NCBI GenBank assembly: GCA_000991245.1
Contig: LBRD01000005.1
Span: 10,944 to 74,943 of the forward strand
Direction of reading: 5' to 3'
From: Parcubacteria group bacterium GW2011_GWC1_36_108
GTDB taxonomy: Bacteria; Patescibacteriota; Minisyncoccia; Moranbacterales; GWC2-37-73
Length of the DNA: 64,000 nt
In this document: piece by piece, positions 4,303 to 48,666 of the stretch
Layout of the letters: the number at the start of each line of letters is the position of its first letter
Numbering within the stretch: position 1 is the stretch's first letter
The notes under the pieces: generated by a model
Database searches by the model: none
Told to the model about the DNA's origin: nothing
Seen by the model: the letters and a program-made list of their open reading frames with translations, nothing else
Translations under genes and position numbers: made by a program

Positions 4303-4959
4303 TTAGGCTGTCATTTTCTCAACATAGTCAATGACTGCATCCATAATAATTTTGCGAACTTGCTTGCCGCTTGAATATGCGACTGGCTGCACCTTGCCGT
4401 TAACAAGAATACACCCACTCCACGCATCAAGCATGATTTGAATAATTTCCTGAGCACCATCACTGATGGAAAATTTGATTCCTGGAAGTTCCTTGATTGA
4501 AAGATCTAGACCGACATCAAGCACAAACCCCCATGACCTGACCTCCAAACGAATTCCGTCCTCCAGGCATTGAGAAGTTATCTCCTCAACAACTTCCTGC
4601 TGCCTTTTCTGCCGACCAGTTATCATAGCGTTCAGTGAATTTTGATTTGCAATCCTTATTGACTCAAGACCATTCATCCATGACAATAATGCTATTGACT
4701 TATCATCACGCAGAGCAATGCCAAGTGGAAATCTTGCCTCAATCATCCTATTCTGATCGCATCCCCAATCTCCAGATTGCACAATTGCAGAAACAAGTGT
4801 GGGATTATCAAATTCCAATCTGATATCACCCATGTGAACACGTCCTAAAATCATCGCCAGATCATTAATTGCATTTTCAGAACACTTGAATGTCATTATG
4901 ACTGTTGGACCAATTCCAGGATACCGCTTACCCATTTCTCTTAAGATCTCTGCTCTCAT
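4303..4959 (-). CDS. hypothetical protein on a GC-richer island (~45% GC) with a strong SD
   Basis: Start chosen at MRAEILREMGKRYPG, which is preceded by GGGAGG 5 nt upstream. The longer ORF-track N-terminus has no RBS. No recognisable domain. Confidence 0.6.
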   Translation of the reverse strand: MRAEILREMGKRYPGIGPTVIMTFKCSENAINDLAMILGRVHMGDIRLEFDNPTLVSAIVQSGDWGCDQNRMIEARFPLGIALRDDKSIALLSWMNGLESIRIANQNSLNAMITGRQKRQQEVVEEITSQCLEDGIRLEVRSWGFVLDVGLDLSIKELPGIKFSISDGAQEIIQIMLDAWSGCILVNGKVQPVAYSSGKQVRKIIMDAVIDYVEKMTA

Positions 4960-5046
4960 GTGAACCTCCCTTAAAAATATAATGTACAACTTGGTGCATA
5001 AGCAGCCAATCGTTAATGATAGCACAAAATCATGCTTAAGTCAAGT

Positions 5047-5086
5047 CAAAAAAATCACCATTCAATGAAGAGTGGTGATTTTTTGC
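5047..5086 (-). terminator. rho-independent terminator (bidirectional hairpin flanked by A and T runs)
   Basis: aaaaaaatcaccattcaatgaagagtggtgattttttg. Confidence 0.5.
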
Positions 5087-5106
5087 TTTATTACTAGCAT
5101 TTTCAC

Positions 5107-5823
5107 TTATCGTGTCCAGCGAAATGATTTGAAAAAATCATTAAAATCATCCGCAAAAAATTCATATTGGTATTCGCCGGTCCCGCAAACAAAAACATAA
5201 CTATTTCCTTGATGCGAAGTGATGGCCTGAGAAACTCTTGTTCTATTGCCAAGCGGGTCAGTGAAAGAAAATTCAATCATATAGGCGTCTTCTCCTCCAA
5301 TTTTGGTCCGCAATGAGGAAATTTCTTTGAAGTCTTTAATGTGCGTCGAGAGGTCACTGGCAACAGCATTGTGAATTTCTTGATCTGATTTTTGAAAATT
5401 GATCCCAACTGGATTAGACCTAACGTCACAACCGGTTCTTTGATCGCCTTTTAAGCGAAAGCCTCCCAAATATGAATCGCCATATTTTTTTTCTTCATCA
5501 TTGTCTGCAACAAAAGCATTTGGAAATTTAAAGCTAAAATCGGGACCAATGTGAGAATAAGATTCATAATTAATCTTTGAAATTCCCGCATTTATTCTAA
5601 TACCTGTAACATTAGTGTTTGACCAAGATTTTATTCCGCTAATAACACCAAGGATAATAGCTATTATCACTAAGATAAAAAATATTTTTTTAATATCCTT
5701 TTTCCATCCAGCCCAATCCACAAGAAAATGTTTTAAAGTTTTTTTTGAATCAGCTTTATTAACAGCCTCCTTTTCTTCAACTTCTATGATGATTTCATTT
5801 TCGCTATTTTTATCTTCTTCCAT
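5107..5823 (-). CDS. hypothetical membrane-anchored protein (single N-terminal TM segment, extracytoplasmic domain)
   Basis: 238 aa; hydrophobic segment IFFILVIIAIILGVISGI; lies 31 nt downstream of the giant surface-protein gene. Confidence 0.6.
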   Translation of the reverse strand: MEEDKNSENEIIIEVEEKEAVNKADSKKTLKHFLVDWAGWKKDIKKIFFILVIIAIILGVISGIKSWSNTNVTGIRINAGISKINYESYSHIGPDFSFKFPNAFVADNDEEKKYGDSYLGGFRLKGDQRTGCDVRSNPVGINFQKSDQEIHNAVASDLSTHIKDFKEISSLRTKIGGEDAYMIEFSFTDPLGNRTRVSQAITSHQGNSYVFVCGTGEYQYEFFADDFNDFFKSFRWTR

Positions 5824-5853
5824 ATAGGTAAGTCATTATATTGACTTAAGATA

Positions 5854-8800
5854 TTAGCAAGTTGTTCCAGTTACGATTCCACCTTCGATTGTGATAGTAC
5901 AAGTATCAGTAGTCAGTGGACCTTTTACTACAGTAAGCGTACTGCTAACTCCACTGTTTCCATCAACCTTAAATACTCCAGTAGCTGAAACATCTTTAAC
6001 ATCTGAAAGATCATTTCCATTAGCATCAATGTCTGCTGCCATATTCAATGTGTCAGCAAGGTTAAGTCCTCCGCTTCCAGTAAAGTCAGTTCCACTGTTT
6101 CCAAGGTTAGTCAAAACATTATCATGCATATCAATGTCACCTCTCATATCAGAATCCCCTGTTATATCAAAACCTCCCGCAGTAACAGTGAACAGACCAC
6201 CAGAAGTTATTGCTCCACCGAATAATCCGCTAGTAGCAATATTCAAACTTCCGCTACCAACAAGATTCCCGCTAAGAGTAAGCGCTGAAAGATTTGTATC
6301 TCCGTTTGATTGAATTTGCCAATCACCGTCTGTAATTGAAACATTAGCATTAGAATTACCAATATGAACTTGCGCAGCGTCTGCCCCTGCTGTTCCAAGA
6401 TTTATTGTTGAATCTGGTCCAGCAGTGTTGTCAGAATTTGTAAGACCAGTAAGGAAATTTACACTGTCAGCATAAATTGTTGACCAACGTGAACCGCTTG
6501 TTCCAAGTGATCCACCAGTAATGTCACCCTCGACGTGCAAATTAGCCTTGCCAGTTCCTGTATTTCTAATAAAAACATCAGAATCAACAGCATTGTTTGC
6601 AATATCAATATTCATGCTGTTGCTTGTTGAAAAGATGTTTCCACCTGAAAGACCTGCTGTTCCATCGCTAAGTAAGAAAGCTAACACGCTGCCTGTTGTA
6701 TTTACATTTATAGCGCTGTTTAAGTCGCTACCCACTATTGTTCCGTCTATAATTTTTGCAGAATCAACACTATCACCAGAAAGTTTTGCGTTTGTTACTG
6801 CACCATCAACAATAGAATTTGTTGTTATTGAATTATCAACCACAGCAGCTGCAAGAGTTGCTGTGCTAGCATTTCCTGTGATGTTAGCAGCTATATCAGA
6901 TGAAAAAGTTTTAATTCCATCTATTGTTTGATCTCCAATTGTGTAGACACCATTAGTAACAGTTTCAGCATTTCCTGTGATATTAGCAACTATGTCAGAT
7001 GAAAAAGTTTTAATTCCATCGATTGTCTGATCTCCGATTGTGTAAACACCATTGGTAACAGTTGCTGCATTTCCTGTAATATTAGCAACAACATCCTGCG
7101 TGAATGTATTGATGCCAGTCAAAGTGTTATTAGCAGCAGCATAAACTCCATCAGTAACGGTTGCAGCATTTCCTGTAATGTTAGCAACTATATCAGATGA
7201 AAAAGTCTTAATTCCATCTATTGTTTGATCTCCGATTGTGTAAACACCATTGGTAACAGTTGCTGCATTTCCAGTAATATTAGCAACGACATCCTGTGTG
7301 AATGTGTTGATACCAGTCAAGGTATTATTAGCAGCAGTATAAACTCCATCAGTAACGGTTGCGGCATTTCCTGTTATATTAGCAATAACATTTGAAGTAA
7401 ATGTTTTAATTCCATCGATTGTCTGATCTCCGATTGTGTAAACACCATTAGTAACTGTTCCAGCATTTCCACTCACGTTGCCAGTTACATCACCAACAAG
7501 ATCTCCAGTAAATTGAACTGCAGTTATAGTTGTAGTTGAATCGATATTACTTCCGGTTATTGTGTCATTTGCGATTTTTACACCAGTTACCGCTCCGTCA
7601 GCAATCTTTGCAGTAGTTACACTTTGATCTGCAAGCTTCACAGGAGTAATAGCACTATCTGCGATTTTTCCAGAAGTAACAGCAGCATCAAGAATTTTTG
7701 AAGTGATAACAGAATCATCTGCTAATTTTGAAGTTGTTACTGCACCATCAAGAATTTTTGCAGTAATCACGCTACCATCAGCTAATTTAATATCAGTAAT
7801 TGCACCGTCCTGGACTTTTGCTGTTGAGATTGAACCGTCAGCTAAATTAACAGCCACGATTGTTCCATCGGCAATTTTTCCAGAAGTAACAGCACCGTCA
7901 ATTATTTTTGCAGTCGAAACAGAATTGTCAGCTAATTTTATCGTAGTAATTATTCCATCTGCAAGATCAGCTACTTGAACCGTTCCGTCAACAATCTTTG
8001 CGCTAGTCACACTATCGTCTGCTAGCTTTACTGTAGTGATTGCACCATCAGCAATTTTTTCTGTTGTTATTGTTGCATCCAGGATTTTAACTGCTGTTAC
8101 TGAATCATCTGCTAATATTGCAGTTGTCACAGCCAGGTCTTGAATTTTTGAAGTACTAACTGATCCATCTGCCAATTTGATATTTGTAATAGCGCTGTCT
8201 TCAATTTTTGCTGTTGAAATTGAACCGTCAGCTAAATTAACAGCCACGATTGTTCCATCGGCAATTTTTCCAGAAGTAATTGTTCCATCTAAAATTTTTG
8301 AATTAACCACGCTACCGTCAGCCAATTTGCTTGTAAGAATAGCACCATCAGCGATTTGATTGCTTCCAACTCCACCATCAGCAATCCCAACAGTTCCGAC
8401 ACCAATAGTTATTCCTGTTCCAGCGCCGACAGTTAAGGTTACATTTCCAAGTGTTCCACCACCAATCAATCCGTCTCCAGCAGTAACACCAGTTATTGTT
8501 CCACCACCAGCAATTGAGTTAACAGTCCAAGAACCATCGTTATTATTAACAACTGTAACATTGTCTCCAGCAACAATTGATTTAACCATACTTCCGTCTG
8601 AAGCAAGTTTATTTCCTGTTATTGTTCCATCAGCAATCTGCAGCCCAGTTATTGAACCGATAATTTTTGAAGCGTCTAAGCTTGTTATCCATGCAGGGTC
8701 ATTATATGAGCCAGTTGTGTAAACACCATCAGTAACGGTGTCAGCATTTCCTGTAAGTGTTCCAACAACGCTGCCAATAAGATTACCCACGAATGAACCA

Positions 8801-9654
8801 GCAGTAACTGTTCCAGTTGTTGTGACATCTCCGCTGCTTATAACGGTCACGCCATCAGTAAAAGAAGCTGCTGTAACAGCGCCTGTAGTGTTGATAGTAA
8901 TATCTGAAGCTAATTTTGAACCCGTGATTTCATTGTCGCCAATTTTAGCGGCAGTTACCACGCCGTCTGCCAATTTTGCAGTTACAATAGCTCCGTCAGC
9001 AATTTTTATTGTTGTCACAGCGCCATCAGCCAATTTTCCATTCGTTACTGCGCCATCAACGATCTTTGCGGTCACAATTGCATCATCTGCAATTTTAACT
9101 CCCGTAACAACTCCGTCAGCAATCTTTGCTGTTGTCACGCTGCCATCAGCCAATTTAACATCAGTTATTGCACCATCAACAATTTTTGCTGTAGTCACGC
9201 TATCATCAGCCAATTTTAAAGTCACAATTGCACCATCAGCAATTTTACCAGCAGTGATTGAGCCATTTGCCAAAGAAACGCCAGCAATTGCACCATTAGC
9301 CAATTTGGCAGAAGTGATTGCACCATTTTTGATGTCTCTTGCTTTAATCGAATCTCGCAAATTTAATTTTGAATATCGTATGCCAGCATTATTTGCAATA
9401 TCCTTATTTTTTAATCGACGTGAAATGTCTACTACATATTGAACACCATTTTTTTCAGCAACCTTTATCACGCTCAATATTTTTTCAGTTCTTGTTTTAG
9501 CATTAACACCATAAAAACCTGCTCCTAAAATAAAAACAACCATAACCAAAACAGTTACGATTTTAACTTTCTTTGCATTTTTCTTCAAAACGTCAGAAAC
9601 AACCCTTCCCTTTTCTAACACTTCCTGCCCAAAAGCTTTTTTACTCATACTCAT
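5854..9654 (-). CDS. giant repetitive cell-surface protein (N-terminal membrane anchor; dozens of ~9-10-aa [KL]ADG[AS]VT[TS]AKI beta-helix-like repeats plus 33/66-aa repeats)
   Basis: 1266 aa ORF; TM segment VTVLVMVVFILGAGFYGV; extreme Thr/Gly/Ala/Val/Ile repeat composition; DNA tandem repeats of 99 and 198 bp. Confidence 0.75.
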   Translation of the reverse strand: MSMSKKAFGQEVLEKGRVVSDVLKKNAKKVKIVTVLVMVVFILGAGFYGVNAKTRTEKILSVIKVAEKNGVQYVVDISRRLKNKDIANNAGIRYSKLNLRDSIKARDIKNGAITSAKLANGAIAGVSLANGSITAGKIADGAIVTLKLADDSVTTAKIVDGAITDVKLADGSVTTAKIADGVVTGVKIADDAIVTAKIVDGAVTNGKLADGAVTTIKIADGAIVTAKLADGVVTAAKIGDNEITGSKLASDITINTTGAVTAASFTDGVTVISSGDVTTTGTVTAGSFVGNLIGSVVGTLTGNADTVTDGVYTTGSYNDPAWITSLDASKIIGSITGLQIADGTITGNKLASDGSMVKSIVAGDNVTVVNNNDGSWTVNSIAGGGTITGVTAGDGLIGGGTLGNVTLTVGAGTGITIGVGTVGIADGGVGSNQIADGAILTSKLADGSVVNSKILDGTITSGKIADGTIVAVNLADGSISTAKIEDSAITNIKLADGSVSTSKIQDLAVTTAILADDSVTAVKILDATITTEKIADGAITTVKLADDSVTSAKIVDGTVQVADLADGIITTIKLADNSVSTAKIIDGAVTSGKIADGTIVAVNLADGSISTAKVQDGAITDIKLADGSVITAKILDGAVTTSKLADDSVITSKILDAAVTSGKIADSAITPVKLADQSVTTAKIADGAVTGVKIANDTITGSNIDSTTTITAVQFTGDLVGDVTGNVSGNAGTVTNGVYTIGDQTIDGIKTFTSNVIANITGNAATVTDGVYTAANNTLTGINTFTQDVVANITGNAATVTNGVYTIGDQTIDGIKTFSSDIVANITGNAATVTDGVYAAANNTLTGINTFTQDVVANITGNAATVTNGVYTIGDQTIDGIKTFSSDIVANITGNAETVTNGVYTIGDQTIDGIKTFSSDIAANITGNASTATLAAAVVDNSITTNSIVDGAVTNAKLSGDSVDSAKIIDGTIVGSDLNSAINVNTTGSVLAFLLSDGTAGLSGGNIFSTSNSMNIDIANNAVDSDVFIRNTGTGKANLHVEGDITGGSLGTSGSRWSTIYADSVNFLTGLTNSDNTAGPDSTINLGTAGADAAQVHIGNSNANVSITDGDWQIQSNGDTNLSALTLSGNLVGSGSLNIATSGLFGGAITSGGLFTVTAGGFDITGDSDMRGDIDMHDNVLTNLGNSGTDFTGSGGLNLADTLNMAADIDANGNDLSDVKDVSATGVFKVDGNSGVSSTLTVVKGPLTTDTCTITIEGGIVTGTTC
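6880..7480 (-). repeat. in-frame 99/198-bp coding tandem repeats inside the surface-protein gene
   Basis: gtgtaaacaccattggtaacagttgctgcatttcc recurs at 7040, 7238 and 7436 (198-bp period); protein unit NGVYTIGDQTIDGIKTF...ITGNAATVT. Confidence 0.6.
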
Positions 9655-12736: not shown

Positions 12737-12738
12737 TT

Positions 12739-12883
12739 ACCCAATTAAATAAGATTTGGGTCTAACTTTTTGGCAGAACCAACTTATTCTTGTTTAAAAT
12801 TTAATATTAATTAATATATCCATTCAATACACTCAAATCTTAGTTTTAAATTTTTAATAAAATTTAAAACTATTTAACAGGGT
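12739..12883 (-). repeat. E-element, long form (E1): ~145-bp palindromic MITE-like leader element with nested stems, ending 3 nt before the lipoprotein ATG
   Basis: Terminal arms cccaattaaata...tatttaacaggg; inner complementary pair aagatttggg/ctcaaatctt; homologous to 43839-43986. Confidence 0.6.
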
Positions 12884-13069: not shown

Positions 13070-13098
13070 ATTGACTTTTGGCTAGTTTTGGAGTATAC
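13070..13098 (+). promoter_or_regulatory. near-consensus sigma70 promoter for the 13192 gene
   Basis: TTGACT-17 nt-TATACT. Confidence 0.55.
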
Positions 13099-13191
13099 TA
13101 TTAGGTTAGTGGTAAAATCCAAAATAGTAGCACCTTGAAAACATAGGCATTTTATGCCAATCAAATATCCCACGAGGAAGGAGAAAAAACC

Positions 13192-13860
13192 ATGGCCAGA
13201 GGAAAAGGAAATGTGCACAAGATGCATGATGGCTACAAGCGACATCAGCATAGGACTTCAACACCGCAATTGTTGGCTCTCGCCAACCAGGAAGAAACTG
13301 AGAGGGCCCGTGAGCTCATGTTTGAGGATATGGCTGCGGACGAGGAACGAGAAAGTATGTATGATGCTCTTTTCGGCGTCGATGACGCTACAGACGAACA
13401 ACCCGAATGCGATTTTGGTTTTGACGATTCTCCTTATGGCGGTTTCAGCTTCGAGCTTGATCCGTTTGACAGAGATGATGATTACAGTTTTGAACCGCGA
13501 CCGGAAGATTCCTGGCAAAAAAACGACCAATATGACGCCGGCGATCGAGCCATTGGAACATTACGCTATTACATGGAGGACGTAAAGCCCGATGAAATTT
13601 CATCAAAAGATGTGGGCTGGATTGCATCAAAATATACATTCCTCTCTGCGATGGTTCTAGGTGGTTCATTTGCTGGAGAACTGTTTGAAGAACCAACAGC
13701 TATCTTCGGACGATATACAATCGCCTTAGAACAAAAGCTCAGAGAAGCCCAGATTGAATTCAAAACTTATCATGGGCTCACAGAAAAAGGTTGGCAGACG
13801 CTTAAAGAATTTCACATCCCCGGTGAAAACAATTTAGAGATGAATGGTGTTCACTGCTAG
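13192..13860 (+). CDS. hypothetical acidic protein on a GC-richer island (~48% GC)
   Basis: 222 aa; strong SD AGGAAGGAG 8 nt upstream of ATG; Asp/Glu-rich; no recognised domain. Confidence 0.6.
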   Translation: MARGKGNVHKMHDGYKRHQHRTSTPQLLALANQEETERARELMFEDMAADEERESMYDALFGVDDATDEQPECDFGFDDSPYGGFSFELDPFDRDDDYSFEPRPEDSWQKNDQYDAGDRAIGTLRYYMEDVKPDEISSKDVGWIASKYTFLSAMVLGGSFAGELFEEPTAIFGRYTIALEQKLREAQIEFKTYHGLTEKGWQTLKEFHIPGENNLEMNGVHC

Positions 13861-13928: not shown

Positions 13929-14396
13929 CTATTTAGTTTTTTGTTTTATCCAATTCACATATCCCCCATTTGCCTCAACTTCAATTTTCATGATGCAGGA
14001 CTGACTCATTTCCACATTTCTTTTTCCCGCAAAAAGAAACCTGGAGGAAAGAAAAGCTCGCACCTGATGAAGATACTGTGGCAAAAACTTCGCTCTTCGC
14101 TAAAATTTACACTGCGCGCCTACGTCTGCTGACGGGCGCTACGTTTCAAAATTTCTTAACGCTCATCACTCGTTTTTTGCCTACGTACTTCATATGGTGC
14201 AAAGGGAATGCAAAATGCAAGATGCAATAAGTTTTTCCTCAAGCAAATGTTCAGCAACTTTTTTCGCTTCTTTGAGGTTTTTGTGAGTGATGTAGAAGAT
14301 GATGGATTTTATATTTCTTTTAAAATCTATTTCTATACTCGCTTCTTTTTTGATAAATTCTCTCATTAAACCCACCCTGTTTGACAAATTCTTCAC
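13929..14396 (-). pseudogene. cutA: cutA (divalent-cation tolerance protein) remnant, frameshifted and truncated
   Basis: N-terminal CutA-like SIIFYITHKNLKEAKKVAEHLLEEKLIASCI runs into a stop. The CutA-like C-terminus (VLHHEN / IEVEANGGYVNWIKQKTK*) is in other frames further downstream. The 5' end overlaps the neighbouring four-helix-bundle gene. Confidence 0.4.
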
Positions 14397-14877
14397 TTAG
14401 AGTTGCGAGTTGTTTGTCGAGAAGATAATTTGTTTGATAAATGACGCAGATGGCAACATTAGCAGCTGACTCAGGATCGTTCAAATAGGACGAATAAGAC
14501 TGAAAGGACGGATTATTATAGCACAAGTTTCGCACAATTTTTGCCTGCGGAAAATCTTTCGCCCAAAGTTTCAAATTTCTTTGTCGAAGAAAATCCTCGT
14601 AGTCCAAAAGTAATTCTTCCAAACTTGCACGTGCGACGTTTGTCAATTTGAGCTCCGTCTTTTTTGAAGTTCCTGCTGCCCGACTTCCTTCAGCAATATT
14701 TTGTCTGCCACTGCGTGCCGCTTGATCCATCTGATCGCGAGTCCTGCTTTTATAATCAATGTATCTTTTTGTAAATTCAACAGTAATATCGTAGACAATC
14801 GTCGACATCTGAAAGGATTTCAGATCGCGATAGCCACCATGCGTGAACATTAAATTTTCATCAGTCCTATTTGTCAT
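14320..14877 (-). CDS. four-helix-bundle protein (23S rRNA intervening-sequence protein family, long variant)
   Basis: 185 aa; core motif SGRQNIAEGSRAAGTSKKTELKLTNVARASLEEL. Confidence 0.7.
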   Translation of the reverse strand: MTNRTDENLMFTHGGYRDLKSFQMSTIVYDITVEFTKRYIDYKSRTRDQMDQAARSGRQNIAEGSRAAGTSKKTELKLTNVARASLEELLLDYEDFLRQRNLKLWAKDFPQAKIVRNLCYNNPSFQSYSSYLNDPESAANVAICVIYQTNYLLDKQLATLSEEFVKQGGFNERIYQKRSEYRNRF

Positions 14878-16903: not shown

Positions 16904-17146
16904 ATTTTTATAACCCCACAAATCTACAAATCTTTTACGAATATACAAATTAAATTCGTTTTTAAAATATTTGCAAAATTATAGGTTAAATTAATTATTG
17001 CTTATTATTTTTTGTTATATGTTACATGTTATATGTTTTATGTTATACTTATATTAGAGCTTGATACATCGCTATCTGCTTCGCCCTACGGGATATTTAA
17101 CTTATGCCCGTATGGGCTTTTTTATTTATAAAGTTTTCTTCAACCA

Positions 17147-17195
17147 CTTTATAAACTTTATAACTTTATAACTTTATAACTTTTTACTCTACCAC
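17147..17195. repeat. tandem octamer repeat (CTTTATAA)x4-5 between grpE and dnaK
   Basis: actttataactttataactttataactttttac; the inverse-orientation tract (TTTATAAAG)n is at 18534-18572. Confidence 0.5.
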
Positions 17196-18533: not shown

Positions 18534-18572
18534 TAGTTTATAAAGTTATAAAGTTTATAAAGTTTTTAAAGC
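18534..18572. repeat. tandem repeat (TTTATAAAG)x4 in the hrcA promoter region
   Basis: gtttataaagttataaagtttataaagtttttaaag. Confidence 0.5.
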
Positions 18573-18704: not shown

Positions 18705-18742
18705 AGAAAAAAGCCCCGATTCTCAGATGAGAATCGGGGCTC
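18705..18742 (-). terminator. strong rho-independent terminator closing the yidD/sORF operon
   Basis: On the minus strand: gccccgattctcatctgagaatcggggc followed by ttttttc. Confidence 0.65.
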
Positions 18743-18764
18743 CTATTATTACAAGAGATAATTG

Positions 18765-18959
18765 TTATTTACAGCGGACACAAATTCCACTGCCGGCACA
18801 ATCATGATTTCTTGTTTTGCCAGGAATCGCCCTGACAAGTAAATCGTGATTAGGACGCCCCTTCCCCTGAAAAACAAGGGCGGAAAGAAAAAGTCCCCTT
18901 GAAAAAACAACCACTTTGTTACCAACGAATACAGACGGCATTGAAACTTGTGTACTCAT
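18765..18959 (-). CDS. small Cys-containing hypothetical protein (sORF-1, 64 aa)
   Basis: GGAGG SD 6 nt upstream of ATG; C-terminal HDCAGSGICVRCK; GC-rich island. Confidence 0.45.
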   Translation of the reverse strand: MSTQVSMPSVFVGNKVVVFSRGLFLSALVFQGKGRPNHDLLVRAIPGKTRNHDCAGSGICVRCK

Positions 18960-19013
18960 AGTCTGCCTCCAAGCAACGAGATCAGCGCATTGCGCTGTAA
19001 AAAACTTTTAAAA

Positions 19014-19127
19014 TCAATCCTTCTCTCTGAACGAATCTGTATTGTCGGCAGGCACACCTCTTCTACAAATATCTTGTATGCAAAGAGCGCCATATGTAAC
19101 AACACAAACTCTGATACGTTTTTTCAT
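19014..19127 (-). CDS. small Cys-containing hypothetical peptide (sORF-2, 37 aa; not in the ORF track)
   Basis: AGGAGG SD upstream; MKKRIRVCVVTYGALCIQDICRRGVPADNTDSFREKD. Confidence 0.4.
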   Translation of the reverse strand: MKKRIRVCVVTYGALCIQDICRRGVPADNTDSFREKD

Positions 19128-19143
19128 TCTTTTTCCTCCTTTT

Positions 19144-19329
19144 TTAAGTTAACAGCTCAACCGATGCTGTTGCACCCAGAACAAAAGGTTCTTCTTCAGA
19201 AGATCTTGGAATTTCCTCGCCAACAGTTAGTTGATGAGAACATTCAACAATATCTATATTGTTAGAACTTTCTTCGCACAGCTGTTTTGTAAGAGTATTA
19301 TGACACACGTAGGTATTCCCTCCTTTCAT
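19144..19329 (-). CDS. small Cys/His-containing acidic hypothetical protein (sORF-3)
   Basis: AGGAGGG lies 9 nt upstream of an internal GTG at 19308, so the true start is probably that GTG (VCHNTLTKQLCEESS...); C-terminus is Glu-rich. Confidence 0.45.
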   Translation of the reverse strand: MKGGNTYVCHNTLTKQLCEESSNNIDIVECSHQLTVGEEIPRSSEEEPFVLGATASVELLT

Positions 19330-19336
19330 TTTTTAT

Positions 19337-19474
19337 TTAGTACTCGAGCAGGGAAAACAAGAAAGTAAAGAAACCTGGATTTCGATCTTTATCCTCATCC
19401 ACAATATCCCGCGTTACCTTCCTAAATTCCTTATCATCATAAACACCAGCGCAACCTCCTGATGACACACACAT
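19337..19474 (-). CDS. small hypothetical peptide (sORF-4, 45 aa; not in the ORF track)
   Basis: GGAGGT SD 7 nt upstream; MCVSSGGCAGVYDDKEFRKVTRDIVDEDKDRNPGFFTFLFSLLEY. Confidence 0.4.
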   Translation of the reverse strand: MCVSSGGCAGVYDDKEFRKVTRDIVDEDKDRNPGFFTFLFSLLEY

Positions 19475-19554
19475 TCTCACACCTCCATTTTCAAATTTTT
19501 AAGTCTACTATATTATATCTAAAATTCCCAATTTCGTATTTAATGTTCCAAGCT

Positions 19555-19847: not shown

Positions 19848-19973
19848 TATTGTAAGCCATTCTAGAAACTGGACAAAAATCTTATAATATCCTATGCTAT
19901 CAAAAAATGTTTTTATTGTTCTTTACACGGGTATTTATAATATAGTGCAACTCAAATTCAAAAGGAGATTATC

Positions 19974-20456
19974 ATGAAAAAAATTATTGGAGTAGGGCTA
20001 CTTCTTTTTACCTCTATTAAGGGTATTCCAAAAATGTACACTGTCGAAGAGTTAAAAGCAAAACCTTCTATATTTAAGGAGGTTGGGATGATAGGACCTC
20101 CCTTCGAAACTATGGAAGAAAAAGACGACGACAACATCGAAACAACAATAACCAGATTGATTCGAGAAGAAACGCCATTTTCTATTAGTGAAATTCGCCT
20201 TCATGAGATAATTTCCGAAGATTTTAACCTCATACCAAAAAGACCGGACATTTTCACTCGTTATGCGTATGCTTCACTAAAAAGTGATCCACCAAAAGAA
20301 ATCTTGGAGTTGCCAGATATTGACATTAGTTTTGCTGGTTGGCATCCACTTTGCGAAATGTATGACAAATTTACCAGAGTTGAAACGCTGCCTATTCTGA
20401 ATCATTTCAAAAGAAACTCACACTATGCAAAATTATGCCATCTCATTTTGTCATAA
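19974..20456 (+). CDS. hypothetical secreted protein
   Basis: 160 aa; AAGGAG SD; N-terminal hydrophobic signal-like segment. Confidence 0.55.
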   Translation: MKKIIGVGLLLFTSIKGIPKMYTVEELKAKPSIFKEVGMIGPPFETMEEKDDDNIETTITRLIREETPFSISEIRLHEIISEDFNLIPKRPDIFTRYAYASLKSDPPKEILELPDIDISFAGWHPLCEMYDKFTRVETLPILNHFKRNSHYAKLCHLILS

Positions 20457-24245: not shown

Positions 24246-24310
24246 GTACTAGGTTTTAGGTTCTAGGTTTTAGATATTGGGTTCTAGGTTCTGGGTTTTA
24301 GGTGTTAGGA
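24245..24310. repeat. 7-bp tandem repeat tract (TAGGTTN)x~9
   Basis: ctaggttttaggttctaggttttagatattgggttctaggttctgggttttaggtgttagga. Confidence 0.6.
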
Positions 24311-26250: not shown

Positions 26251-26384
26251 ATCCGAAATACGAAGCACGAAACTCGAAACAATATCAAAACTCTAATAAC
26301 AAAAATTCGAAACATTTTGAAAATTTGAATTTATTATTTAAAATTGATTTAAAATTTATAATTTAAAATTTAAAATTAAACCTC

Positions 26385-26972
26385 GTGTATCCCAAAGCAT
26401 TTCAAAAATTAATCAAGAATCTTGCTTCCCTTCCTTCGGTTGGTCCTAAAATGGCCGAGCGGTTAGTGCTTTTTCTTTTCAAGCAGGATATTGAAAAAAT
26501 TCGCGATTTTGCAGAAAATCTCTTGGAAATCAAGAATATGAAAATTTGCAAAAGGTGTTTCAACATTGCTGAAGCAGAACTTTGCGAATATTGCAAAGAT
26601 GAAAGACGCGACCAACATTCAATTTGCGTTGTTGAAGAACCACTCGACATCATTTCACTTGAACGCACCAAGGCATACACCGGACTATATCACGTTCTTG
26701 GCGGTGTCATTCAAGTTGGAGATTCTGGTGCAGAACTCAAAATTCCCGAACTTATCTCTCGCATTGAAAATGAAAAAATTACCGAGGTTATTCTGGCCAC
26801 CAATCCAACAACTGAAGGCGATGCGACCGCACTTTATCTCAAACGCAAAATTCAACCACTTGGAATAAAAATCACCCGTCTTGGACGCGGTCTTTCAACC
26901 GGAGCGGATTTGGAATATGCCGACGAACTCACTCTTTCAGAAGCATTGACAAATCGCAAGGAATTGCTATAA
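26385..26972 (+). CDS. recR: recombination protein RecR
   Basis: HhH (SLPSVGPKMAERL), C4 zinc finger (CKRCFNIAEAELCEYC) and Toprim domain. Confidence 0.88.
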   Translation: MYPKAFQKLIKNLASLPSVGPKMAERLVLFLFKQDIEKIRDFAENLLEIKNMKICKRCFNIAEAELCEYCKDERRDQHSICVVEEPLDIISLERTKAYTGLYHVLGGVIQVGDSGAELKIPELISRIENEKITEVILATNPTTEGDATALYLKRKIQPLGIKITRLGRGLSTGADLEYADELTLSEALTNRKELL

Positions 26973-27025
26973 TATCAAGTCAATTGATGCAGCACATTAA
27001 AAAAATATACGGAGGATAACGCGCC

Positions 27026-27331
27026 ATGCTCACAACAGTTCTGATTTCCAGTGGAATTTCGGTTATAGATCCAATGACTTTTGATAGTCTTGACTCTATA
27101 AAGAAATTTGTCACAGACAAATTAAGAGAAATTTTTTACAACAACTTTCCATTTGGGGACATTTTTGATCCAGAAAAAATCATTGTAGAAATTCCTAGCA
27201 ACATCGGGAACACCGTCTGTTTTCATTTTTGCCAAAGTATGGTTAAAAAAAATGACGGCCCACCCTTTATGATTGCGGATGTGACAGTTCACGGAGAAGA
27301 GCACATTGGCTGGATAAAATACATTGATTGA
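27026..27331 (+). CDS. hypothetical protein (first gene of a three-gene SD-bearing operon)
   Basis: 101 aa; GGAGG SD; no known domain. Confidence 0.5.
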   Translation: MLTTVLISSGISVIDPMTFDSLDSIKKFVTDKLREIFYNNFPFGDIFDPEKIIVEIPSNIGNTVCFHFCQSMVKKNDGPPFMIADVTVHGEEHIGWIKYID

Positions 27332-27364
27332 GTTTCTTACTAAAACAAAACTAAGGAGGACCGT

Positions 27365-27838
27365 ATGGCTAAAATTAAGCTTGATCGCAAGGATATCAAA
27401 AAATTACTACCACACCGCTTTTGGATGCTGTTTATTTCGAGTGCTATTTACGAGGAAGGTTCCAAAGAAATTATTGCATACAAAAAAATATCCTGGTGGC
27501 GCGACTTTCCTTTTCTGTTTGGACATTTTTTTACTGAAGTGTTTTATCCAGGAGTTTGTCAATATGAATGCTTTAACCAAGCAGCTGCTCTCTTGGTCAA
27601 GCTCATGAATCCGACATCAGTCAATGGCCTACCAAAGGTTGTCGGCTACGAAGGAATCAAGCATCTTACTCCGGTAAAAGCGGGAGATTATCTTGAAATT
27701 CATGTGCAACTAGATAAGGCTAAGATGGGTGTGTACTTTTTTTCTGGAGAAATATCAAAAAGGGATGCCCGTGGATTGTTGCGTGCAGTAGAAATAAAGA
27801 AGATGCAGGGAGTAGCTGATGCTCCAAAATCAAAATAA
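27365..27838 (+). CDS. hotdog-fold FabZ/FabA-like dehydratase family protein
   Basis: 157 aa; AAGGAGG SD; LPHRFWMLF motif resembling FabZ LPHRFPFLLVD, plus a FGHFF segment. Confidence 0.6.
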   Translation: MAKIKLDRKDIKKLLPHRFWMLFISSAIYEEGSKEIIAYKKISWWRDFPFLFGHFFTEVFYPGVCQYECFNQAAALLVKLMNPTSVNGLPKVVGYEGIKHLTPVKAGDYLEIHVQLDKAKMGVYFFSGEISKRDARGLLRAVEIKKMQGVADAPKSK

Positions 27839-27854
27839 CCAAAGGAGATTTGCC

Positions 27855-28310
27855 ATGCAAGAATCAATAACAATCCTCATTGGAAATCCTGCGAATGCGC
27901 TATACAAAATTGCCGCAAGTCGAGCTTCTGCAAAAACTCCTGGCGATAAAATTCTTTATCCTCATTTTGAAATACTAGCAGATAAGGAAATAGTACACGC
28001 AGGCGACATTGACCGCGTTACCGTAGTTTCCACTGGATTATCCGATGAAGAAGAATTACTGATAATGAAAGGTTTGGCAAAATATTGTGGAACAACAGGA
28101 GCCTCTGCCAGAAAATACCTTTCAGAAAAAGGCTCCGTAGCCATGAATGCAGAGAAAAGCATTAATGCAGTTGAAAGAGCAATGGGTCTTCCCGAAACCA
28201 CTTCCGAACAAAGAAAAGAGGAATGGAAAAAACTCATGGCTGCCAATGGCGACGCGATACTTTCAGCCTGCAAAGAAGGACCAAGACCGGGAGATCTTGG
28301 TTGCGACTAA
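27855..28310 (+). CDS. hypothetical protein (third gene of the operon)
   Basis: Start placed at MQESIT with AAGGAG 8 nt upstream; ~43% GC. Confidence 0.5.
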   Translation: MQESITILIGNPANALYKIAASRASAKTPGDKILYPHFEILADKEIVHAGDIDRVTVVSTGLSDEEELLIMKGLAKYCGTTGASARKYLSEKGSVAMNAEKSINAVERAMGLPETTSEQRKEEWKKLMAANGDAILSACKEGPRPGDLGCD

Positions 28311-28335
28311 TATCTCCATAAAATACTACAAAAAA

Positions 28336-28362
28336 AGCCCCACGGACTCCGCGGGGCTTTTT
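28336..28362. terminator. bidirectional rho-independent terminator (ends the + operon and rplU)
   Basis: aaaaaagccccacggactccgcggggcttttt. Confidence 0.6.
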
Positions 28363-28425
28363 CATATTCAAAGTGTATTTTGTTGTAGATTGAAAGTTGT
28401 TTGTTGTTTGTTGTATGTTACATGA

Positions 28426-30625: not shown

Positions 30626-30662
30626 GGTAGGTGTTAGGTTTTAGTTTTTAGGTTCTAGGCTC
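30626..30662. repeat. 7-bp tandem repeat tract (TAGGNNN)x5 ending 3 nt before the alaS ATG
   Basis: taggtgttaggttttagtttttaggttctaggctctg; mRNA-sense reads ...cctaacacctacccatATG. Confidence 0.55.
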
Positions 30663-31193: not shown

Positions 31194-31276
31194 TTTAGGA
31201 GTTAGTAATTAGAAATTAGGAATTAGGCAATAAAAATCCTGCATTTTACTACAACCTAATTCCTACAACCTACAAG
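31194..31276. repeat. TTAGNAA/CCTAANN 7-bp repeats forming an inverted repeat ending 3 nt before the ATG at 31190
   Basis: ttagtaattagaaattaggaattaggc ... acaacctaattcctacaacctac. Confidence 0.5.
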
Positions 31277-41513: not shown

Positions 41514-41520
41514 AAAAATA

Positions 41521-41600
41521 GCTTCTCAGCCTTTAGCTTCTTAGCTTCTTAGAAAATTCAGGACACCTGAAAAGCTAAAAAGCTAACGCCTAAAAAGCTG
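41521..41600 (-). repeat. F-element copy F3 in the pheT leader
   Basis: mRNA-sense: cagctttttaggcgttagctttttagctttt-caggtgtcctga-attttctaagaagctaagaagctaaaggctgagaagctattttt-ATG. Confidence 0.5.
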
Positions 41601-43836: not shown

Positions 43837-43838
43837 TT

Positions 43839-43986
43839 ACCCTGTTAAATAAGATTTGGGCTTTTTAAAAAAGAAAACCCACCTATTAAAGTTAATTTTT
43901 TAATTTTATTCACAACATTATTTAATTCAAGAACCCAAATCTTAATTTTAAATTTTTTAAGGAAATTTAAAATTATTTAACAGGGT
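43839..43986 (-). repeat. E-element, long form (E2), ending 3 nt before the tyrS ATG
   Basis: Perfect 12-bp TIR ccctgttaaata...tatttaacaggg; inner stem aagatttggg/cccaaatctt; ~125-bp AT-rich interior. Confidence 0.6.
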
Positions 43987-44017
43987 GAATAATCTTAAAT
44001 TTTCATTACTAATATAG

Positions 44018-44050
44018 ATTTATAATACCAATTTACACAACTTTTTGCAA
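44018..44050 (-). promoter_or_regulatory. sigma70-type promoter for the E2-leader/tyrS transcript
   Basis: Minus strand: TTGCAA-17 nt-TATTAT. Includes the shared 17-mer tataaatctatattagt also found at 24653-24669. Confidence 0.45.
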
Positions 44051-44091
44051 CACCCAGCCTTGGCTTCACAAAAGGTCAAATCGACAAGGGG

Positions 44092-44120
44092 TTGACTAAC
44101 TTATCAAAAAGATGTATAAT
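44092..44120 (+). promoter_or_regulatory. consensus sigma70 promoter for the GGDEF gene
   Basis: TTGACT-17 nt-TATAAT; a 9-bp perfect inverted repeat tgtgggaaaattgtttcccaca lies in the leader. Confidence 0.55.
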
Positions 44121-44196
44121 TATATATTGTGGGAAAATTGTTTCCCACAGCAAATTATAGAACCTTTACAATTTTATATACCAAGGAGGATTCAAA

Positions 44197-45003
44197 GTGG
44201 AAAATTATTCACAATTAGACATTAGCGTATTCGAACCGTTAGAAAGAAAGTGGTTATGCATCAACCCATGGTGGCGCCGTACGATACGATTGTTTATTTC
44301 AATGATTTTATCTTTTCTTGTTTTCACTGTACCCATGCTATTTTTTATTGAGATAAAACAACATGCATTGCTTTTTTTAACACAATTTATATTGGGAACA
44401 ATTGCATTCTACATCGTTTCAATTCTACTAACAGCAGTTGCAAGAAATCGCAGAACCCTCGCAACATTGTACATAAAACTGAAGGATTTTTCCCTTCGAG
44501 ATTCCTTGACGGGGTTATACAATGACAGAAAGTTCATGACTGAAAAACTGGAATGCATGTCAACGTATGCGAAAGCAAACAATGAATCTGTAGCGATTTT
44601 TTTTGCTGATCTCGATGACCTCAAAGAAATAAACGACAATTACTCGCATCTAGCGGGTGACAGTGCTATCGTAGCAACAGCAAAACGCATGGGCAATGCA
44701 TTTAGGGATAATGATTTCTTGTTTCGCTTCGGAGGAGATGAATTTTTTGCTATAACATTATTAAAAAACACCCCCGAAAACGAGGCGGAGGAAGAAGTAG
44801 CAAAAATTACTCAGAGAATAACGGATTCTGTAAGTACAAAACCAGTGCGTTATGGTGAAGACAAGATACTGTTATCAATTTCCATTGGCGCACACATCCT
44901 AAATCCCGAAAACACAATTGGGAGAGAACTTTTAATTGTAGACAAAAAAATGTACGCAATCAAAAAAGATAGGAAGCTAGGAGGAAAAGCAACAAGAAAG
45001 TAA
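44197..45003 (+). CDS. membrane-anchored GGDEF-domain diguanylate cyclase
   Basis: GTG start with AAGGAGG SD; two or three N-terminal TM helices; RFGGDEF active-site motif. Confidence 0.8.
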   Translation: MENYSQLDISVFEPLERKWLCINPWWRRTIRLFISMILSFLVFTVPMLFFIEIKQHALLFLTQFILGTIAFYIVSILLTAVARNRRTLATLYIKLKDFSLRDSLTGLYNDRKFMTEKLECMSTYAKANNESVAIFFADLDDLKEINDNYSHLAGDSAIVATAKRMGNAFRDNDFLFRFGGDEFFAITLLKNTPENEAEEEVAKITQRITDSVSTKPVRYGEDKILLSISIGAHILNPENTIGRELLIVDKKMYAIKKDRKLGGKATRK

Positions 45004-45011
45004 ACCATACA

Positions 45012-45047
45012 AGCCGGCATAGTGCTAAATCACTATGCCGGCTTTTT
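45012..45047 (+). terminator. rho-independent terminator
   Basis: agccggcatagtgctaaatcactatgccggcttttta. Confidence 0.6.
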
Positions 45048-45067
45048 AATTTGTGTAAAAAATATCT

Positions 45068-45340: not shown

Positions 45341-45407
45341 ATTGTTACAAATTTTTAATTTTTAATAAAAACCTGGATTCCCGCCTCCGCGGGAATGACA
45401 AGATGAA

Positions 45408-46310: not shown

Positions 46311-46423
46311 GAGATAAAATTTTTATAATTTTTTAATTTTGTAATTTTTAAATAATGTTTTAATTTCTTAATTTTTAAAAATTATAAAATTTGTATTTAT
46401 TTATAAAATTAAAAATTAAAAAT

Positions 46424-48097
46424 TTAATCCAATATATCAGATTTTTTTACTCCTACCATCCACATTCTATTATGGATCCAGTCACTAATGATAACTTTAA
46501 GCATTGTTCTGGTAATTATCACAGCAGTAAACATTGAAACCACAACTCCAATAAAAAGTGCGGCTGCAAAACCTTTCACAAAACCCGTACCCATAAGATA
46601 CAAAATTCCAGCGGTCAGCAAGGATGAAATGTTGCCGTCGCGAATTGATGTCCAAGCACGTTTGAATCCTTCTTCAAGTGAATTCGCAATCGTTCTTCCA
46701 CCACGTATTTCTTCTTTGGTTCTTTCAAAAATCAAAATATTAGCATCGACCGCCATACCAATTGAAAGCACGAATCCTGCAATACCGGAAAGTGTCAGGG
46801 TAATTCCTGTCATTTTGAAAATAGTTATCATCACTGCAGTATAAATAAGCAAAGCTAATGATGCGACAAGTCCTAGGAAGCGATAGAAGATAAGCATAAA
46901 AACAACAACTGCTCCGAGGCCTATTGCTCCAGCAATCAAAATACTTCTAAGCGAATCTGCTCCAAGAGTTGCTTCAACGCTTTGTTGACCAACCAATGTC
47001 AAAGGAACTGGCAGCGCACCTTGATTTAATCTGTCAGAAATATCCTTGGCTTCTTTGAATGTGTAATTTCCTGTAATCACCGCTTGCCCGTTTGTGATTT
47101 CAACTTGAACGGTTGGTGCTATCTGCAATTGTCCATCCAAGAAAATTGCGATTTCTTTTCCTAGATTTTTTTTGGTTAGTTCTGCGAAAAGCTTTGTGCC
47201 TTCTTCGTCAAATTGAAGAGAAACTTCCGGTTCTCCAAGACCTTGCCCGTTTGAATATTGCGCTGTTGCACTTTTTAAGTTTTTTCCGGTAAGCGCCGTT
47301 GTTTGATATTTGAACTGTTCATATTGAGAAGGATCTTTTTTTGCAAAAAGAATGTGCGCACCATGAACTTCCAAATTTTCTCCTTCCCCACGAGATTCAA
47401 TAAATTTAATAATGTGCCAACCATATTGAGATTCCACCAAATCAGGATAAATTTCTCCTGATTTCAAATTGCTTTCGAATAGAATCTTATCAAATTCTGG
47501 CACAAAAGCACCTTTTTTCACGAAATCCAAATCTCCGCCCTTATCCTTGGAGCCGGGATCTTCACTATTATCCTTGGCAAGCTGAGCAAAATCTCCACCA
47601 TTTTTGACTTCATCGAAAATTTTCTGTGCTTTTTCTTTTGCCTGCGTGTTCATCTGATCAAACATTTGTTGAACTTGCGGATCGACAGGACCTTCTTCTT
47701 TAAATTCCAATAACGGAGCGTCTTTAATTTTAGCCTTAGCTTCTTCAATATCTTTAATACCGGGAAGTTCAACAATGATACGATTTTCTCCACTGCTCTT
47801 GGCAATTTGCACCAATGGCTCCCCCACACCAAAAGCATTCACGCGTCTTTCAATGACAGTCTGCGCGCCCTCCATTGCTTCTGCCACTTTTGATGGATCA
47901 ATATTCGAAACATCCGCTTTATATTCCAAATGAAATCCTCCTTGCAAATCAAGTCCCAATTTCAATTTAAACTTATTCAGTGCGTCATAAAGTGGCGTTA
48001 TTTTTGAAACTGCCTGTGGATATGCAACAAGACCAGCAACCACTGCCAAAACGATTACCCCAGCAAATTTCAATTGTAATTTTTTCTTTATATTCAT
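46424..48097 (-). CDS. secD: protein translocase subunit SecD carrying an embedded parvulin-type PPIase domain in the periplasmic P1 region
   Basis: LGLDLQGG and RRVNAFGVGEPLVQ (P1 base); then NGGDFAQLAKDNSEDPGSKDKGGDLDFVKKGAFVPEFDKILF...SQYGWHIIKF (matching PpiC [27 protein letters not shown]...TQFGYHIIKV); then the P1 base resumes (EPEVSLQFDEEGTKLFAELTKKNLGKEIAIFLDG) and six TM helices. Confidence 0.88.
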   Translation of the reverse strand: MNIKKKLQLKFAGVIVLAVVAGLVAYPQAVSKITPLYDALNKFKLKLGLDLQGGFHLEYKADVSNIDPSKVAEAMEGAQTVIERRVNAFGVGEPLVQIAKSSGENRIIVELPGIKDIEEAKAKIKDAPLLEFKEEGPVDPQVQQMFDQMNTQAKEKAQKIFDEVKNGGDFAQLAKDNSEDPGSKDKGGDLDFVKKGAFVPEFDKILFESNLKSGEIYPDLVESQYGWHIIKFIESRGEGENLEVHGAHILFAKKDPSQYEQFKYQTTALTGKNLKSATAQYSNGQGLGEPEVSLQFDEEGTKLFAELTKKNLGKEIAIFLDGQLQIAPTVQVEITNGQAVITGNYTFKEAKDISDRLNQGALPVPLTLVGQQSVEATLGADSLRSILIAGAIGLGAVVVFMLIFYRFLGLVASLALLIYTAVMITIFKMTGITLTLSGIAGFVLSIGMAVDANILIFERTKEEIRGGRTIANSLEEGFKRAWTSIRDGNISSLLTAGILYLMGTGFVKGFAAALFIGVVVSMFTAVIITRTMLKVIISDWIHNRMWMVGVKKSDILD

Positions 48098-48138
48098 AAA
48101 TTTAATTTTATATCATTTTTTTCAAATAGGCAATATTT

Positions 48139-48174
48139 TAAAAAATGCCCACCAGTCTAATGACTAGCGGGCAT
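48139..48174 (-). terminator. rho-independent terminator after the 48193-48666 gene
   Basis: Minus strand: atgcccgctagtcattagactggtgggcat followed by tttttt. Confidence 0.55.
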
Positions 48175-48192
48175 AAATGGCTTGGGAGTAAA

Positions 48193-48666
48193 CTACGCAG
48201 ACAACTGCTCTGACAACTGCCTTATGTTGTACAGCCTAACTTCGGATGGAAAGTTGATAAATTTAATCCTGTGACGTAATTGCAACTCATCAACATACCA
48301 TTTTTCCAGCATTATGCCGAGAGCTTCGCCCATCTCAGAAAAACTCATCTTGGAGATATTGTAATGCAGAGCATCGCAATATGCAAGATGGCACGAAACA
48401 ACTTTTCGAACTCTCTCGATTTCAGTTATCTCATCTCCAACCTTCTTGAAAAACTTACGCCTGAATAAATTCCTGCGAATCCATTCCAGCAAATAAGAAC
48501 ACGGGACCTTCCAGGGTAAAGGAACATTATTCAACTCCTGACACACCTTAAGCAATGTTGTCTCCTCTTTTGCCATTCGATCTAAAGCTTCTTTACTCTC
48601 ATTAATAAGAAGTTTAAATAGATCTTCAAGTTGATTTTTACGCACTTGCACTTCATTTTGCAGCAT
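48193..48666 (-). CDS. hypothetical protein; stand-alone unit with a strong SD and its own terminator, GC-richer
   Basis: 157 aa; GGGAGG 4 nt upstream of ATG. Confidence 0.55.
   Translation of the reverse strand: MLQNEVQVRKNQLEDLFKLLINESKEALDRMAKEETTLLKVCQELNNVPLPWKVPCSYLLEWIRRNLFRRKFFKKVGDEITEIERVRKVVSCHLAYCDALHYNISKMSFSEMGEALGIMLEKWYVDELQLRHRIKFINFPSEVRLYNIRQLSEQLSA

Follow-up and report, generated by a model that had tools for sequence, protein, structure and literature searches.

Compositionally atypical genomic islands and the amelioration of horizontally acquired genes are established concepts (Lawrence and Ochman). A different kind of departure concerns translation initiation, and two systems are described. 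In Bacteroidia, which are blind to the Shine-Dalgarno (SD) motif, the anti-SD of the 16S rRNA is retained and sequestered by bS21/bS18/bS6, leaders are A-rich and Kozak-like, and a strong SD is found on rpsU (PMC7797042, PMC9976891, PMC13000453, PMC13000457). In a subgroup of Parcubacteria, the anti-SD motif itself has been lost (Tsurumaki et al. 2022, PMC9297842). Otherwise, translation initiation in Patescibacteria (Candidate Phyla Radiation, CPR) is essentially unstudied: that survey, the single one found, reports only the absence of the anti-SD in many Parcubacteria, and our literature search turned up no description of an SD bimodality in Patescibacteria, nor of the SD as a signature of gene acquisition in lineages poor in SDs. 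Here, we examine a 64-kb segment (hereafter the window; 36.9% GC) of a Candidatus Moranbacteria (Patescibacteria/CPR) genome from aquifer metagenomes, in which accessory genes led by a strong SD are interspersed among core genes without one. Our reading, held with moderate confidence, is that canonical pairing between SD and anti-SD still works in this lineage and is used by the flexible gene pool only, whose genes would be SD-carrying cassettes that keep the SD while their GC content decays.

The SD strength of 62 gene starts was scored by pairing the 20 nt ahead of each start with 5'-ACCUCCUUA-3' and taking the best duplex energy (dG). The resulting distribution is bimodal: 12 starts lie between -7.7 and -12.1 kcal/mol, where spacers of 3-11 nt follow a purine-rich motif able to pair with the 3' tail of the 16S, while the remaining 50 are at -6.2 kcal/mol or weaker, mostly above -3. 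These 12 starts (hyp218, hyp222, four small open reading frames or sORFs, hyp160, the hyp101-hyp157-hyp151/163 operon, a GGDEF cyclase and hyp157b; Table 1) are exactly the set that an earlier note on this DNA had listed as accessory genes with strong SDs, and the core genes that it had described as SD-less (recJ, dnaJ, dnaK, grpE, cysS, dnaB, recR, alaS, pheT, secA and the ATPase at 36417) are all among the weak starts. With a threshold of dG <= -7 kcal/mol, 3.1% of 2103 background ATGs (non-start ATGs of the window) qualify, against which 12/62 is an enrichment (binomial p = 3.9e-7); it persists (8/58, p = 4e-4) when the sORFs are set aside, because these were recognised partly by their SDs. 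Core genes are at the background level and not depleted (probability of 0/50 = 0.21). Chance or an artefact of start-codon choice might be invoked, since words resembling GGAGG abound within genes (55 of them on the coding strand) and the sORFs owe part of their recognition to the motif itself. Against this, both tests remain significant, the pattern recurs in relatives and independent gene callers agree on the starts; mis-called starts do not explain the split either, because the N-termini of core proteins align with those of their orthologs from residue 1. We regard such an origin as practically excluded.

The earlier note had pointed to the 16S 3' tail of the organism as the reference, and this tail turns out to be canonical. 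A 53.9-kb contig (L010) that is 97.5% identical to the window carries at its very beginning the 3'-terminal 104 nt of a 16S rRNA gene (L010:1-104; Rfam score of 73.8 bits), which, as read from the gene sequence, ends in ...GGAUCACCUCCUUUCU, i.e., a CCUCC tail. A metagenome scan with this fragment recovered the same tail on four further contigs (L097-L100), among which one full-length 16S comes from a Rifle sample that also gave contigs of this species; on L100, a yceG ortholog 89% identical to that of the window is located some 1.5 kb from the 16S. Because the 16S of the lineage ends in this way, the SDs of the window should be usable by its ribosome, and the lineage is not one of the Parcubacteria devoid of an anti-SD (PMC9297842). 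Most likely, then, the SDs can pair with the 16S tail and are functional. A trailer and a hairpin resembling a terminator come after the 16S gene (L010:1-600; also L097 and L100), whose neighbours are pyr genes or yceG. No 23S rRNA was found in the approximately 4-7 kb downstream of the 16S on L098-L100, hence the rRNA genes appear to be unlinked.

The same bimodality is seen in loci of relatives. A crude census (first ATG of open reading frames of at least 100 aa, counted as SD-led at the same threshold) gives SD-led shares of 40-60% in Clostridia loci retrieved with the same query and of 0-10% in most Patescibacteria loci, against 15% in the window, 18% in L016 and 27% in L094. As the census is low in most Patescibacteria loci, the SD independence of core genes appears to be a trait of the wider group. 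A strong-SD minority is clear in the present family and in the loci flanking the 16S (L098-L100), where the SD-bearing genes all have 42-47% GC. Across all Patescibacteria loci, the elevated GC of SD-led genes does not hold cleanly as a rule, and many single census calls there correspond to the false-positive rate. A contig scan based on alaS gave 80 loci; beyond the nearest relatives, these are no longer syntenic and gave no homolog of the SD proteins.

Among these relatives, several SD-led genes are old residents. Full-length orthologs of the GGDEF protein range in identity from 70% to 40%, and the gene occupies the same slot in the window and in three other loci (L093, L094, L102), inverted beside pheS or tyrS and ahead of hyp90-secF-secD. 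In all four copies, an AAGGAG(G) SD lies at a distance of 6-8 nt from the start. The promoter TTGACT-17-TATAAT precedes the gene in both the window and L102, while none of the core neighbours in L093, L094 and L102 is SD-led. Core proteins of these three loci are 72-91% identical to those of the window (pheS: 84-88%), compared to 40-57% for the GGDEF protein. Likewise, L011 features SD-led hyp157 (FabZ-like, 79% identity) and hyp163 (66%) after recR, and L012 has an SD-led FabZ-like gene (59-62%) between recR and rplU. The SDs at these two loci (GGGAGG, AAGGAG, GGAGG) are kept amid diverged flanks, and dnaB and recR are SD-less and 92-97% identical (dnaB 97% and recR 96% where hyp157 is 79%). 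Altogether, the SD is kept in the orthologs of GGDEF in four genomes, of hyp157 in three and of the hyp218 family in three. Since the split is conserved in sister species, the SD marks a class of genes and not merely fresh imports.

Other slots are subject to turnover. The sister-locus comparison covered GGDEF, hyp101, hyp157, hyp163 and hyp157b: GGDEF, hyp157 and hyp163 are present at the same locus in relatives, and hyp101 and hyp157b are absent, as is the purine/pyrimidine island described below. Because it is missing from both L011 and L012, hyp101 is probably a later addition to its operon. For hyp157b, neither L093 nor L094 has a homolog, and its slot between secD and a nudix gene is filled there by the non-homologous genes h75 (L093) and h112 (L094), of which h112 is SD-led (AAGGGAGG). 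In addition, L094 has two extra SD-led genes (45-49% GC), encoding secreted proteins or lipoproteins, between secA and the hyp172 homolog.

As for hyp218, a full HMMER scan delineates a family of 76 clusters of proteins of about 210 aa, whose one taxon-named member is from Patescibacteria. Homologs with 42-48% identity lie in unrelated contexts in the SD-poor genomes of L096 (10001-10669) and L101 (8001-8654); all three members are SD-led and exceed their host genome in GC, those of L096 and L101 by 5-9 points. The AlphaFold2 model of hyp218 is confident (pLDDT, a per-residue confidence score, of 94.5) and has no Foldseek match in PDB or BFVD.

From the strong SDs and what it took to be elevated GC, the earlier note had suggested a recent lateral acquisition from SD-using donors of higher GC, possibly the bacterial host of an episymbiont. 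The compositional premise holds for the group: compared to non-SD genes, SD genes have a higher GC (0.400 vs 0.368, p = 0.0025) and, sORFs left aside, a higher GC at third codon positions (GC3: 0.365 vs 0.298, p = 1e-4), GC3 also exceeding that of non-SD hypothetical genes (p = 0.012), and their codon usage departs from that of the core (p = 4e-5), even though the effect is modest. The value of ~43% given for the three-gene operon stood as well. The GC premise does not extend to hyp160 (36.0%), hyp101 (35.9%) and GGDEF (37.1%), which equal the window mean, and the other quoted values were about 3 points or more too high (41.9% and not ~45% for hyp218, 45.6% and not ~48% for hyp222, 37.6-43.6% and not ~47% for the sORFs).

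For the window genes at large, we consider a recent import unlikely. In its favour are the GC3 and codon usage just mentioned, the absence of hyp101 from L011/L012 and of hyp157b from L093/L094, and hyp222, which combines the top GC of the window (GC3 of 0.42) with a singleton cluster at 90% identity. Yet, sister genomes have GGDEF and the FabZ-like pair in synteny and with their SDs preserved, the excess in GC is small, and nil for three genes, and core genes such as dnaB, dnaJ, dnaK and recR are themselves at 41-42% GC. Where top hits outside the lineage had been anticipated, the nearest homologs of hyp157, GGDEF and hyp218 instead belong to Moranbacteria-type contigs or Patescibacteria, and the 90%-identity clusters of the SD genes hold only Moranbacteria or Parcubacteria records, the sORFs being found in this species only. 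Viral-contig scans with hyp218, hyp222 and hyp157b returned no relatives, PHROG and PADLOC had no match for the SD genes apart from the generic GGDEF domain, and no link of the window SD genes to a host was found. Hence, recent acquisition fails for GGDEF and the FabZ-like operon; it probably applies to turnover slots such as the secD/nudix one, and perhaps to hyp222, hyp101 and hyp157b.

Recent acquisition does hold for an island that several assemblies place directly past the end of the window, on one and the same contig, and that comprises purC/E-purH-pyrF-pyrE-like-pyrD-pyrC. Wherever the start could be read, the genes of this purine/pyrimidine island are all led by a strong SD (-8.7 to -12.0 kcal/mol), and the next core genes (Band7, yceG) have no SD. 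Its GC (Table 1) is far above that of the genome, its dihydroorotase is an E. coli-type class II enzyme, the strain of L010 is without pyrF, and no homolog of the island genes was detected at the L100 locus. It is thus a clear, young, textbook island, and the best case for recent import in the neighbourhood, even though look-ups of its proteins in 90%-identity clusters retrieved Moranbacteria or Parcubacteria records only, and no donor. Taken together, the SD-led genes differ in age: some are young and rich in GC, others old and ameliorated in composition, and the SD persists across the whole span.

The two kinds of initiation region differ beyond the SD. In non-SD genes, positions -20 to -1 are 79% A+T, with an A at -6 in 72% and a T at -1 in 64% of them. 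SD genes have a higher upstream G fraction (0.29 vs 0.10), GC-richer first 30 coding nt (0.38 vs 0.28) and more stable folding of the -30 to +30 region (minimum free energy of -6.1 vs -3.6 kcal/mol). These differences might mean that the SD is selected wherever a start region is too G+C-rich or too structured, regardless of the origin of the gene. Such a compensation, on its own, seems to us very unlikely: the SD itself supplies part of the extra structure and G content, GGDEF, hyp160 and hyp101 have a genome-average GC and yet strong, conserved SDs, and the inverted orientation, missing annotation, fast evolution and slot turnover of SD-led genes would be left unexplained.

These last properties set the class apart. 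No Pfam family is assigned to 10 of the 12 SD genes, compared to 11 of the 50 non-SD genes (p = 1e-4); Pfam and NCBIfam gave no match for SD-led proteins other than GGDEF and hyp157, and the latter falls below the cut-offs of the FabZ/ApeI-like hotdog families. Three of the seven SD units (hyp222, hyp160 and GGDEF) are inverted relative to both neighbours, compared to 1/50 for non-SD genes (p = 0.005). Several units possess their own near-consensus sigma-70 promoter and a strong terminator, as the earlier note had seen; the promoters do not separate the two classes, because core genes share the same type.

That note had also offered a distinct translational regime as an alternative, which is compatible with the conserved SDs and the canonical anti-SD. 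In its full form, the core would have vacated SD-anti-SD pairing, and the cell would switch accessory or host-interaction genes on or off together, for example by occluding or trimming the 16S tail or by means of heterogeneous ribosomes. The retention of an anti-SD that core genes do not use and the conservation of SDs in orthologs are in line with such a dedicated channel, for which there is a precedent in the bS21-free ribosomes of Bacteroidia that translate SD-led rpsU (PMC9976891, PMC13000453), bS21 being frequently missing in Parcubacteria (PMC9297842). Nevertheless, no evidence for ribosome heterogeneity or a regulator emerged, no common function, regulatory motif or leader was found among the window SD genes, and the metabolic genes of the purine/pyrimidine island are SD-led too, which looks like inheritance from a donor rather than a designed regulon. 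We therefore view a dedicated channel as improbable. The bolder proposition that the whole core proteome of this Patescibacteria family has left SD-anti-SD pairing, which would survive as a private channel for the flexible pool, maybe for host-interaction genes, is similarly doubtful; if true, accessory expression could be tuned en bloc via anti-SD availability, and the accessory genome of CPR bacteria would be recognisable over long times by its SDs, independently of composition.

The scheme that we prefer, SD-carrying cassettes in an otherwise SD-independent genome, would run as follows. Core genes would be initiated from SD-less, A+T-rich and weakly folding leaders with AT-rich first codons, some leaders being repeated elements, while about 13-19% of genes start with a strong canonical SD (GGAGG, AAGGAGG) placed 4-10 nt ahead of the start codon. 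The latter would represent the flexible part of the genome, mostly lineage-restricted hypotheticals plus the GGDEF cyclase and a hotdog-fold protein, which, where orthologs exist, evolve several times faster than their neighbours. Most units are self-contained, with a consensus promoter and a terminator, and often inverted in slots between conserved core genes. Most of these genes would have entered the lineage, or circulate within it, as SD-carrying cassettes, so that the genes of the window may be of foreign origin and their SDs may drive their translation. Once a gene is resident, purifying selection would hold its SD, because the gene would otherwise be unable to recruit the ribosome, while its base composition would drift to that of the genome, i.e., amelioration. 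The SD being kept while composition drifts, it would therefore mark class and ancestry over long times, and not recency.

Several points weigh against this scheme. In three genomes whose GC ranges from 37 to 44%, the GC3 offset of the hyp218 family stays roughly constant (+0.08 to +0.16); a compositional regime specific to the class would account for this no less well than repeated transfer. Three SD genes show no GC excess at all. No donor was identified for any SD gene of the window, those other than hyp157, GGDEF and hyp218 having been checked at the level of 90%-identity clusters alone. Integrase, transposase and phage families are absent among the called genes and there is no tRNA in the window, flanking direct repeats not having been searched. 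Finally, about 85 kb of this genome were looked at in total.

Proteins identical to those of the window are encoded on contigs of up to 101 kb (Rifle aquifer and other metagenomes) and in several metagenome-assembled genomes of GenBank. According to the Pfam labels of the matching contigs, the gene map includes recJ, dnaJ, dnaK-grpE-hrcA, yidD, corA, cysS, dnaB, recR, rplU, alaS and mnmA, as well as a PIF1 helicase, a VirD4-like ATPase, DUF8128, a sigma factor, pheST, tyrS, secDF, secA, hpf, murB, a P-type ATPase and others; a tRNA scan and an Rfam scan of the 64 kb had no match. Two SD-led genes are called too short in public records, GGDEF by 46 codons (222 aa) and hyp157b by 5 codons (152 aa); the SDs, along with ortholog alignments, favour the longer forms. 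In hyp160, a second SD lies ahead of an in-frame ATG, and translation from the upstream ATG adds an N-terminal hydrophobic segment; there could be two isoforms, or else the upstream start is mis-called.

Table 1. Coordinates of the SD-led units, their signals and other features (window positions, unless a contig is named; dG in kcal/mol).
Feature	Position (strand)	Start or product	Signals and composition
hyp218	4303..4975 (-)	ATG 4959, 218 aa	SD GGGAGG 4970-4965, dG -12.0; 41.9% GC
hyp218 promoter-like site	5016..5044 (-)		TTGACT-17-TATCAT, TG-extended
hyp222 promoter-like site	13071..13099 (+)		TTGACT-17-TATACT
hyp222	13174..13860 (+)	ATG 13192, acidic, 222 aa	SD GAGGAAGGAG 13174-13183, dG -8.8
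Four-sORF operon	18709..19490 (-)	Cys-rich	One SD per sORF; 16-bp terminator 18744-18709
sORF 1	19337-19474 (-)	45 aa	dG -10.6
sORF 2	19144-19308 (-)	GTG, or ATG 19329; 54-61 aa	dG -12.1
sORF 3	19014-19127 (-)	37 aa	dG -11.6
sORF 4	18765-18959 (-)	64 aa	dG -9.3
hyp160	19963..20456 (+)	ATG 19974	SD AAGGAG, dG -8.7; inverted relative to both neighbours
hyp160, second SD	20075-20083	In-frame ATG 20088	Sole perfect TAAGGAGGT of the window
Operon promoter	26946..26973 (+)		TTGACA-16-TATAAT, 12/12 consensus, TG; within 3' end of recR
Three-gene operon hyp101-hyp157-hyp151/163	27011..28363 (+)		GC 35.9-42.3%; bidirectional terminator 28331-28363
hyp101	27026-27331 (+)		SD GGAGG, dG -9.5
hyp157	27365-27838 (+)	FabZ/ApeI-like hotdog protein	SD AAGGAGG, dG -12.0
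hyp151/163	27855 or 27819 to 28310 (+)	ATG 27855, or start at 27819	AAGGAG (ATG 27855) or GGGAG (dG -7.7, start at 27819)
GGDEF unit	44092..45044 (+)	GTG 44197 to 45003; small membrane diguanylate cyclase	SD AAGGAGG 44183-44189, dG -11.4
GGDEF unit signals	44092-44120; 45011-45044 (+)		Promoter TTGACT-17-TATAAT; terminator; inverted relative to tyrS and hyp90
hyp157b stand-alone unit	48145..48771 (-)	Gene 48193-48666; secD/nudix slot	SD GGGAGG 48676-48671, dG -11.3
hyp157b signals	48771-48743; 48174-48145 (-)		Weak promoter; terminator
Purine/pyrimidine island	L009:1-6648 (same species; ~window 64.5-71 kb)		46-55% GC vs 37% for the genome
hyp172 and ligB leaders	52645-52693; 58032-58080	Abutting ATG	49 nt shared, 96% identity
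hyp202 and tyrS leaders	12737-12763; 43837-43863	Abutting ATG	27 nt in common
Intergenic tandem arrays	24242-24309; 30628-30659; 31195-31237; 41519-41552; 46318-46427; 17146-17183; 18535-18571; 26328-26377		7-8-nt units: CTAGGTT x9, TAGGTTT, TTAGGAA, TAGCTTCT, ACTTTATA, ATTTAAA
Hypothetical protein with repeats	5854-9654	1266 aa	Internal tandem repeats 6861-7471, 8969-9326; periods 99/198 nt, 30/60/120 nt
bAvd-like genes	14320-14877; 22438-22794	'23S rRNA intervening sequence protein'	Not SD-led

The repeated leader elements that the earlier note had described as abutting core genes are real, as are the heptamer arrays upstream of such genes. The leaders of hyp172 and ligB share a hairpin (TGCGG-ATTA-CCGCA vs TGTGG-ATTA-CCACA) that features a compensatory C-G to T-A change, and another element is common to hyp202 and tyrS. 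These leaders could be elements of SD-independent initiation or of regulation. The tandem arrays are mostly located just upstream of core-gene starts, and none is upstream of an SD-led gene. Leaderless initiation of the core genes was considered and rejected, as the starts that were checked (rplU, corA, hrcA) have promoter-like -10 boxes at a distance of 30-100 nt upstream. Two further side observations concern a large hypothetical protein built on internal tandem repeats and two free-standing bAvd-like genes among the core genes (Table 1).

If the pattern were genome-wide, the SD would provide a simple sequence marker of the accessory or acquired gene pool in uncultured symbionts, one that outlasts GC amelioration. 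Likewise, gene callers relying on one model of ribosome-binding site would mis-start one of the two classes (see GGDEF and hyp157b), and these organisms would become a natural system to ask why bacteria without a need for SDs retain an anti-SD.

How does the locus compare with the described systems? As in Bacteroidia, core genes are SD-less in spite of a CCUCC tail on the 16S, upstream sequences are rich in A/U with a position-specific A, and a small minority of genes has strong, conserved SDs. Unlike in Bacteroidia, about 13-19% of the genes are SD-led, compared to essentially one gene in F. johnsoniae, and the set is accessory or hypothetical instead of rpsU, bS21 being often absent from Parcubacteria (PMC9297842) and no rpsU having turned up in the DNA covered here, too small a part of the genome for this negative to weigh; that the SD-led set consists of 12 unrelated genes argues against membership in the Bacteroidia type of SD-blindness. 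With the Parcubacteria subgroup without an anti-SD, the lineage shares the super-phylum and a general SD independence, but it retains the canonical tail, which would serve a subset of genes. As for classical islands, the resemblance lies in the deviant GC3 and codon usage, the patchy distribution in sisters, the inverted insertion between conserved genes and the gradient from a young island of 46-55% GC to a genome-like GC. In contrast with such islands, the units are single genes or mini-operons, several of which are old and syntenic, without an integrase, tRNA or recognisable mobile-element scaffold, and their most durable mark is a translation signal and not their composition.

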